Assembly: GCA_965649765.1 (NCBI GenBank)
Contig: OZ287755.1
Location: forward strand, 5,208,001-5,272,000
From: Bispira polyomma
Lineage: Eukaryota
Direction: 5' to 3'
DNA length: 64,000 bases
A program made the position numbers and the translations under genes. Within the stretch, counting starts at the first letter, position 1; each line of letters begins with the position of its first letter. The notes under the pieces are model-generated. The model ran no database searches and was not told the origin of the DNA. It saw only the letters and a program-made list of their open reading frames with translations. Positions 57,275 through 59,015 of this stretch are shown one piece after another.

Positions 57275-59015
57275 ATGTTTACACTAATCACATTAGTATG
57301 TTTGACTGCTTGCACAAGTGTGTTAGCGAATGATTGTATTGCTGAAGATAAATGCATGTGTTTGGAAAAACAAATAAACTTTAATAATATCTTTGGGCAA
57401 CCAAAAATGGATATAGAACACCCAGAAAAAGTGAGATATTTCTTCATCACCAACTCATATGTAACTGGGTTGGATTTCGTGGATCAATTCACCAACCTTG
57501 AGATTTTCTCAGGTGATTGGACTGTCGACATAAATTGTACCTTGGTGTACGTTAAAGCAAAAATGGTAGACTACAGCTTTACTTTCACTCGCTGTCCAGG
57601 TAAGTTAGTTATTATTATGTTAAGTAGTCTAGTGTATACACAACTATATATTGAACTTAACTCTTTTAAACAACACAAATAACACTACTTAACTTCAATA
57701 TACCTCATATGATACAGCTCCCACACCCATCAACAATTAATATATGTATTCTTAATCTTACAAAGCCCTTTCAACTGTGGACCTAGGCAGTACAACGTCA
57801 TTAGCCAAACCAACTGTACAAATCACTCAGAGGGTTAATTCACCCAAATCAGCTGTACAGACCACCCTACCGTCAACTGTACAGACCACCCCACCATCAA
57901 CTGTACAGACTACCCAGTCATCAACTGTACAGAACTCACCCCAGCCAACCCAACAACGGACTACAATGTCAATGATTATCTCAACTCTAGATCATGGTAA
58001 TAATACTATAACTTTTTTTGACAAGCTAACTCTAGACAACAACTAAATGTCTGTGGTTAATTGTTAATAGAATAGCAGCTTTGATAGTTTTATACCCATA
58101 ACAGTCATAGAGAGTTCAAGTTATCCCAAGTCTTGTGTTAACATAACTACATTCAAACCAGAAAATTCCAAGATAATTATTTGCATTGTATATTACTTGC
58201 ACAAACTTAACTTCTAAAAGGTTATAAGAGAGATGTATATAGTTAAATAATAGGTAGAAGATAAGATCAAATAAATCTGTGGTAAGTGAATGTACTGTTA
58301 TAATATTGCCACCAAACTAAGTAAAGTTGAATGAATAATGAAAGTATTCTATTCATAGGGTAAGAAAAGAGTATTATTCCTCGACCTACCACAACACAAA
58401 TGTCTATTAAGACGACAATTAGCACTACGTCAATGTCCTCAACAGAGTCACCTGGGTCAGATTCCAGTATTGGTAAGTATATTTCAAACTTAATATGAGC
58501 AACGCTGTCATATACACAACGTCCTCAAGAGAATTTGCTAAATCAAGTATTAGTGTTTGTAGTTTGGACGTGATTTTTATTTAAAACTTTAATATGAATA
58601 ACGTTGTCATATACACAATGCCCTCAACAGAGTTACCAAGATCAGATGCTGGTACTGTTAAGTATAGTTATGTATGTTTCAAACTTTTCTATAATTAAGA
58701 TAATCTGTCATAAACAGAATCTGATGCTATAGGTTATAGGTTTCAAACTTTTCTATGATTAAGATAATCTGTCATAAACAGAATCTGATGCTATAGGTTA
58801 TAGGAATTTCCTAAGAAATGATTGTTTGTTGTCTTGTAGATAAAAAGATGATTATTGGAATTGGTTGCGGCTTTGGTGTGGCGACAATTATAATCAGTGT
58901 GGTGGTCACTATCTGTCTTCTGAAATGTCCCTCAAAGAGAGTCAGGAGAAGGAGGGAGACAAGCCCCATTATCCTAGAAAATATTAGCTATGGCAGTCAG
59001 GAGACAGACCTATAA
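57275..59015 (+). pseudogene. Predicted 4-exon type I membrane glycoprotein: signal peptide, Cys-capped LRR-like domain, mucin stalk, TM, basic tail (exons 57275-57599, 57766-57996, 58359-58472, 58840-59015)
   Basis: MFTLITLVCLTACTSVLA signal; STVQTT(P) repeats; TM IIGIGCGFGVATIIISVVVTICLL followed by KCPSKRVRRRR. All three GT-AG introns are phase 1. One TAA at 58361 in exon 3. Confidence 0.78.

Follow-up and report, generated by a model that had tools for sequence, protein, structure and literature searches.

Predicted exon-intron structure of the gene

We analyzed a window of 64,000 nucleotides of Bispira polyomma DNA (GenBank assembly GCA_965649765.1, contig OZ287755.1, positions 5,208,001 to 5,272,000 of the forward strand), and all positions given here are counted within this window. 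A gene that likely consists of four exons lies on the plus strand. Exon 1 (57275..57599, +, 325 nt, 108 codons and 1 nt) encodes a predicted signal peptide and a Cys-capped mini-LRR-like head with an N-C-T sequon, and it ends at the phase-1 donor CAG/GTAAGT. Intron 1 (57600..57765, +, 166 nt, GC 0.27, phase 1) has a weak acceptor, AAG, and an alternative in-frame acceptor before 57787. Exon 2 (57766..57996, +, 231 nt, from AAG to ATG/GTAATA) is symmetric in phase 1 and encodes an S/T/P-rich stalk with 49% S+T+P. The 24-bp repeats of the STVQTT type that had been predicted were found inside this exon at 57841-57933 (+, 4.0 copies, 84% matches). Intron 2 (57997..58358, +, 362 nt, GC 0.28, phase 1) begins with the weak donor GTAATA. 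Exon 3 (58359..58472, +, 114 nt, from TAG to TTG/GTAAGT) is a second S/T-rich stalk exon, with 58% S+T+P, and contains a TAA at 58361-58363. Within intron 3 (58473..58839, +, 367 nt, GC 0.30, phase 1) lie a 64-bp tandem pair of sequence repeats (58676-58804, +) and the decayed copy of the end of exon 3 noticed earlier, which we placed at 58616-58669 (+, 54 nt, 80%) and which has lost its GT. The coding part of exon 4 (58840..58994, +, stop codon at 58992-58994) encodes a TM helix, a juxtamembrane Cys, a basic KRVRRRR stretch and a tail ending in ETDL. Just 3' of the stop codon there is a strong donor-like GTGAGT (59021..59026, +, rank 2 of 121 GT sites), possibly of a 3' UTR intron, and AATAAA is present downstream at 59092 (+). 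The spacer upstream of the gene holds a 46-nt inverted repeat (91%, 23-nt loop) at 55656-55770.

The original prediction had described four exons with six splice sites, all in phase 1, and we confirmed the coordinates in the sequence, together with the symmetry of exons 2 and 3, whose lengths are divisible by 3. The GC content of the exons was 0.36-0.47, compared with 0.27-0.30 in the introns, which contained 2-15 stops per frame. Joining exons 1-2-4 gave 243 open codons and joining exons 1-4 gave 166, so skipping of exon 3 does leave an open protein, as had been claimed. The complete 1-2-3-4 join halts after 186 codons.

Further, we scored the splice sites, which had been proposed as a check, with a rough splice matrix (121 GT and 115 AG sites in 57275-59100). 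The outcome was divided. Donors 1 and 3 ranked 1 and 6 among the GT sites and acceptors 4 and 3 ranked 3 and 4 among the AG sites, while donor 2 reached only rank 17 and acceptor 2 only rank 35. The in-frame TAG acceptor at 57787 (rank 21 of 115) stood somewhat above acceptor 2. An in-frame AG located 6 nt 3' of acceptor 3 scored poorly (rank 77 of 115). Since donor 2 and acceptor 2 score poorly and the acceptor at 57787 scores better, the borders of exon 2 are the least certain of the predicted borders of the gene. Introns 2 and 3 are predicted from composition, phase and protein logic only.

Predicted protein

The sequence supports a spliced four-exon gene for a predicted type-I membrane protein composed of a head, an S/T stalk, a TM segment and a tail. 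The second S/T-rich exon followed by TM and tail had been part of the original prediction, and we observed both the S/T-rich composition of exon 3 and a hydrophobic helix in exon 4 (best 19-residue Kyte-Doolittle mean 2.58). The end of the tail, ETDL, fits the class I PDZ-binding consensus and is a putative motif of this kind.

The model of the head had a mean pLDDT of 85. Nearly all of the structure matches listed were LRR proteins, with TLR, VLR and GPIb chains among them, and the best was LRIM1 (Z 7.9, rmsd 2.4, 80 residues aligned). With Foldseek, nothing in PDB or BFVD reached E<=0.001 (best E 0.12). The Atlas pointed weakly to LRR families for the head, with a recognition of 2116, which is below 2300, and the look-alikes were animal LRR proteins. 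No Pfam LRR or LRRNT match was above the cut-off and the head matched no Pfam family; among eight short homologues scanned with Pfam, one showed LRR_4 (E=0.042). A cysteine cap follows the signal peptide, and most homologues have the pattern C-x(3-5)-C-x-C-x6-C. The head would resemble a short Cys-capped LRR domain in its working, and its membership in the LRR families is weak.

Signal peptide and head share one exon in the window and one ORF in the homologues. The stalk exons alone are 1-1, and the head does not qualify as an exon-shuffled module of class 1-1 (PMC8001218).

Homologues of the head and the predicted first intron

A phmmer/HMMER scan over 1.84 billion representatives (E<=0.001) returned 16 matches, 14 of which were short ORFs with the head (68-154 aa). 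The two remaining matches, P0001 and P0013, were long; we judged them to be chance matches of repeat-rich sequence and left them out of the alignment. P0001 has no family, and P0013 is a HYR/CHU_C protein. The 14 short homologues, known from protein records and not from the surrounding DNA, were 27-43% identical in the alignment. All were unnamed, and all were truncated first-exon calls. Where complete, they had a signal-like start, the cysteine cap, LRR-like strands, the C88 motif and often N-C-T/S.

The end of the head was reached by 12 of the 14 homologues, and in all 12 similarity ceased at donor 1 of the window, in a C-P-G-like motif. The residue at the donor position was G in 11 sequences and R in one, and the codons are compatible with N/GT. 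It was followed in 7 of 12 by K, E or M (binomial P about 1e-4, for sequences that are not independent), which are the residues that GTAAG, GTGAG and GTATG would encode. Therefore the ending of similarity at donor 1 in 12 homologues supports a predicted first intron that is conserved across distant relatives. In the P0002 cluster, which has six members, the heads were identical at 87-92 of 92 positions and had no indels, and the tails were 16-44 aa long with frame shifts. This is how an exon followed by an intron would be expected to behave. Ten proteins, among them eight short homologues, were looked up by cluster. All were unnamed ENA entries. One cluster contained six members that were nearly identical and stood on contigs of differing length, as would be expected of a repeat family.

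The protein searches revealed no homologue of exons 2-4. Neither three word-index searches (near lengths; longer; longer with a profile, where the profile word-index search is weak evidence) nor one full HMMER scan yielded a named or longer (spliced, annotated) homologue. Head profiles found no relatives in IMG/VR and JGI, and capsid and polymerase fragments found none in IMG/VR.

The Maverick/Polinton element that carries the gene

The gene is located inside a 21-kb Maverick/Polinton. This element (41223..62258, 21,036 bp), a decayed copy of a multicopy family, was recognized by its terminal inverted repeats, end motifs, target site duplication (TSD) and Pfam matches. The arms of the terminal inverted repeats (41222-41449 and 62032-62259) are 228 nt long, 97% complementary and 20.6 kb apart. 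The ends read AGTAGT..ACTACT, and the 6-bp TSD CTTGTG is found at 41217-41222 and 62259-62264. Thus the element has both the terminal inverted repeats and the (AGT)2//(ACT)2 ends with a 6-bp TSD of Mavericks/Polintons; the latter two features are given as the definition of vertebrate Mavericks in the part of PMC8097293 available to us.

In a Pfam scan of the element, DNA_pol_B_2 was above the cut-off (E=1.6e-6), and rve (E=3.1e-6) and Chromo (E=5.3e-5) were below it, both on fragments. The combination of protein-primed DNA polymerase B and rve integrase that characterizes a Maverick/Polinton is thereby present. Weak matches were obtained for Peptidase_C5 (adenain protease, E=0.016) and Pox_A32 (packaging ATPase, E=0.026). 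No Pfam match to a capsid was found in the element; the ORFs at 45865 and 46625 are putative capsid genes by their position.

The unbroken core ORFs of an intact, active Maverick copy were not found. Four core genes examined carried 13 breaks in 8443 nt. At 12 of the 13 breaks the junctions overlapped or were at most 39 nt apart, and at the remaining one the distance was 50 nt; the coding parts had no AT-rich islands. Because of this tight spacing and the absence of AT-rich islands, introns were ruled out as an explanation of the breaks, and we read them as lesions, namely frameshifts and stops.

The flanks of the Maverick resemble an AT-rich animal genome. They hold a presumed decayed LTR-retrotransposon-like element (about 30000-37700, -), whose ORFs were labelled by eye. 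Several fragments at 13900-16850, 21900-22600 and 63400-64000 were labelled in the same manner, and we take them to be LINE reverse-transcriptase-like.

Paralogue and other genes of the element

The head profile was compared with 1390 six-frame pieces, and the best non-self match (E=0.0064) was an intronless distant paralogue at 53217..53717 (+). Its 166 aa comprise a Cys cap, an LRR-like head, a short acidic stalk, a hydrophobic segment and a tail. The hhalign comparison gave E=3.2e-4 (probability 39%), and the paralogue matched LRRNT with E=4.4e-4, below the cut-off. It overlaps the beginning of the polymerase region, which is encoded on the other strand.

Two more genes in the right arm are apparently spliced, as judged from sequence. 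On the plus strand, two GC-richer segments (53913-54062 and 54491-54704), separated by a phase-2 GT-AG intron with GC 0.28, join into 120 open codons. The product would be basic and Pro-rich, has no Pfam match, and a further GTAAGT donor lies near 53789. On the minus strand, an acidic exon (60504-60213) and a second exon (59955-59577) flank a phase-2 intron with GC 0.21 and give 222 open codons. By eye and without Pfam support, the second of these exons is PC4-like. Donors near 60925, 60970 and 61108 suggest micro-exons upstream of 60504 on the same strand. A diverged sibling contig retains 60297-60412 and 60605-60726, and the 192 nt between them are replaced.

In the left arm (42049-42474 and 42483-42818, +) we observed an ORF with a BIR (inhibitor of apoptosis) domain (E=3.5e-18) and, more weakly, a match to PC4 (E=0.016). 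The predicted BIR domain is a second sign of host-interaction genes in the element. A NADAR domain (E=1.4e-9, 48513-49283, -) stands in frame behind the C-terminal part of the polymerase, and just upstream of the ATPase two CAG/GTAAGT donors are located at 43175 and 43252 (-) in a 77-bp duplication. The polymerase segment 50334-50717 (-) looks by eye like a VSR-like insertion and has no profile match; such an insertion is reported for mollusc pPolB2 in the available text of 10.1101/2023.08.22.554363.

Sibling copies and the stop codon in exon 3

We compared the window with contigs from three public runs (X1, X2 and X3), which belong to one study and represent at most two samples; such contigs drop rare variants. 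The search for matching runs listed these three, and none is recorded as RNA. Over 56200-61300 all 30 bins were covered in the three runs, introns included, and none of the three introns showed a joint. Therefore we read the runs as DNA, and they provide no evidence against splicing. The summed contig depth over the gene was about 600-1800 in X1 and 120-440 in X2 and X3, depth being no copy number, and the runs contained many short variant contigs. Both observations fit a collapsed multicopy family.

The main sibling contigs differed from the window at about 1-2% of positions. The letter at 58361 was not that of the window in any of the covering depth, and it made the codon a sense codon (X1 581/581, X2 158/158, X3 306/306). 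The sense codon in sibling copies that had been named as a check was thus found in the covering contigs of every run. Records 2 and 3 of X1 carried 5 and 8 differences (all listed), none of them in donor 1, acceptor 2, acceptor 3 or donor 3, and on record 2 the GT and AG of intron 1 were the same as in the window. The listed sibling contigs end at 57992, just short of donor 2. For acceptor 4, none of the 5 differences listed, out of 9 on the covering record, falls in the AG.

The breaks counted in the core genes (13 in 8443 nt) predict 1.29 lesions for a gene 840 nt long (P(>=1)=0.73). Since no sibling contig of the three runs has the TAA at 58361-58363 and a lesion is predicted by the rate of decay, the stop is most likely a lesion private to this decayed copy. 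A cysteine of the cap is missing in the window's copy, and this is likely another lesion. Among the exonic differences from siblings that were listed (40 of 110 table rows), 2 of 12 fall at the third position of a codon, which is what one expects when a dead copy decays neutrally. A selection test against the siblings is uninformative, because the differences are mostly the window copy's own decay. The broken state of the window's copy is ordinary decay.

Discussion

The gene is probably best read as an old, spliced accessory gene borne by the right arm of a Maverick/Polinton and encoding a predicted single-pass cell-surface glycoprotein, here in a decayed copy. We likewise favor an element-borne history for it. 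The family has the look of an old one carried by elements, not of a fresh capture, and a long residence in the element is suggested by the paralogy inside it.

Recent capture of a host receptor gene at the DNA level, with its introns, as passive cargo is in our opinion unlikely. It would agree with the animal-style architecture and with introns that are all in phase 1, which are typical of metazoan extracellular and membrane proteins according to the accessible part of PMC8001218. The position of the gene is subterminal, such capture has a precedent in the wasp and krma genes of nematode Mavericks (bioRxiv 10.1101/2022.07.12.499685, as far as its text was available), and the look-alikes in the Atlas were animal LRR proteins. 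However, the word-index searches and the HMMER scan returned no named or longer homologue, the clusters looked up were unnamed with one of them repeat-family-like, no intron separates the signal peptide from the head, and a diverged intronless paralogue lies in this arm along with other genes that appear to be spliced. Moreover, the arm is AT-rich, in contrast to the GC-rich cargo region described in the part of Widen et al. that we consulted. Capture of a host gene had been one of two explanations in the original prediction; against it stand the location in a Maverick, the lack of an annotated cellular orthologue in the protein searches and a head outside class 1-1, while an ancient capture is compatible with the data.

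The other explanation, that alternative splicing of the symmetric exons tunes the length of the stalk and that exon 3 is a skipped or poison exon, we find very improbable. The symmetry of exons 2 and 3, the open 1-2-4 and 1-4 joins and the weak sites around exon 2 would allow it, and the duplicate in intron 3 shows that stalk DNA gets duplicated. Against it, the TAA is missing from the siblings in all three runs, and one lesion is what the rate of decay predicts. The acceptor (4 of 115) and donor (6 of 121) of exon 3 rank high among the sites scored and are the same in siblings, the duplicate no longer has its GT, and the AG 6 nt past acceptor 3 is weak. Because the stop is a lesion, tuning of the stalk loses its motive, and the proposed skipping of exon 3 found no support: a TAA private to a decayed copy needs no bypass. 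A bypass through the AG 6 nt downstream was also considered and rejected, being unnecessary for siblings that lack the stop and dependent on a poorly ranked site.

It is scarcely credible that only exon 1 is coding, for an unspliced secreted mini-LRR protein of 135 aa, with the downstream exons as unrelated short ORFs or chance, for although its frame continues for 27 codons to a stop and the protein searches found no homologue of exons 2-4 nor the runs a junction read, conservation ends at C-P-G, the read-through tails of near-identical homologues vary in length and frame, exons 2-4 are GC-richer than the spacers, match in phase and follow the order stalk, stalk, TM and basic tail, and in the paralogue at 53217 a single ORF spans the head, the stalk and the hydrophobic segment.

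If the gene is an old accessory gene of the element, as we favor, the right arm would be a set of accessory genes, and transcripts of intact copies would be made in the nucleus of the host and processed by its spliceosome. The spliced message, about 280 codons long, would yield a type-I glycoprotein of about 280 residues, which the signal peptide would direct into the ER. The disulfide-capped LRR-like head, presumably N-glycosylated at the conserved N-C-T/S, could form a small binding unit above the glycocalyx, on a stalk of about 115 S/T/P-rich, probably O-glycosylated residues that keeps it away from the membrane. The basic tail with its ETDL end may dock on host scaffold proteins. The most likely job of such a protein would be to interact with the host on the surface of whichever cell harbours the element or is infected by it. 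Candidate roles include binding or decoying an immune or entry ligand, modulation, and control of entry by related elements. Our best guess about function comes from the architecture and from analogy with adenovirus E3 only, and a specific immune-modulating role is put forward tentatively.

The resemblance to GPIb-IX chains, variable lymphocyte receptors and LRIM1 lies in the Cys-capped LRR-type head suggested by the structure matches. GPIb-alpha and VLRB carry an S/T/P-rich stalk, and that of GPIb-alpha varies in repeat number. In contrast to these proteins, the present head is very short, and the structure matches had 6-21% identity and Z at most 7.9 with no match at the sequence level. The likeness is one of design, not of membership. 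Adenovirus E3 membrane glycoproteins are spliced or accessory type-I membrane proteins. The predicted protein is similar in kind to them and to the Maverick fusogen MFUS-1, in that all would be spliced or accessory type-I membrane proteins carried by viruses from one broad lineage. We found no link to them in sequence or fold. MFUS-1 is a gB-like protein of 866 aa in the available text of bioRxiv 10.1101/2022.07.12.499685, whereas the protein predicted here has about 280 aa and is LRR-like.

In the part of that work (Widen et al.) accessible to us, nematode Mavericks carry intron-bearing cargo (wasp/msft-1 proteases and krma kinases) next to intronless core genes. The present element would be alike in having spliceosomal-type introns, here predicted, in non-core genes near the TIR. 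The nematode cargo consists of enzymes, and here the product is predicted to be an LRR-like mucin-stalk membrane protein. A further difference from the nematode cargo so described is that our gene lies in an AT-rich region, at the end of the element that is distant from the integrase, and the protein searches found no host family outside the elements. With the vertebrate Mavericks of Barreat and Katzourakis (PMC8097293, in the part available) the element shares the (AGT)2//(ACT)2 ends, the 6-bp TSD and a size within 12.7-24.6 kb, as well as degradation, which affects most copies there, and regions of accessory ORFs.

Introns in Maverick cargo are already known. For an LRR-like mucin-stalk receptor family in Mavericks, we found no description in the literature searched, which was mostly outside subscription journals and comprised main texts; the available parts of PMC11957031, PMC8502044, 10.1101/2023.08.22.554363 and PMC11296320 contain nothing on such a gene.

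It is conceivable, and we would not put it more strongly, that an animal Maverick lineage has a dedicated spliced host-interaction arm, similar to E3 of adenovirus, including an old, element-native family of mini-LRR mucin-stalk receptors that acts on host immunity or on the entry of related elements. The element-native part of this reading draws on the 27-43% identity of the homologues, the first intron in place and the intronless paralogue. Annotation usually treats Mavericks as collections of intronless ORFs, and genes like this spliced accessory one would therefore be missed or fragmented. A conserved surface glycoprotein in a Maverick would point to selection for host interaction outside the nucleus, and it bears on the question whether animal Mavericks behave as viruses. 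If there is indeed a receptor family native to the element, it would give direct evidence that elements of which no virions have been observed go through a life cycle that is virus-like and involves the cell surface.
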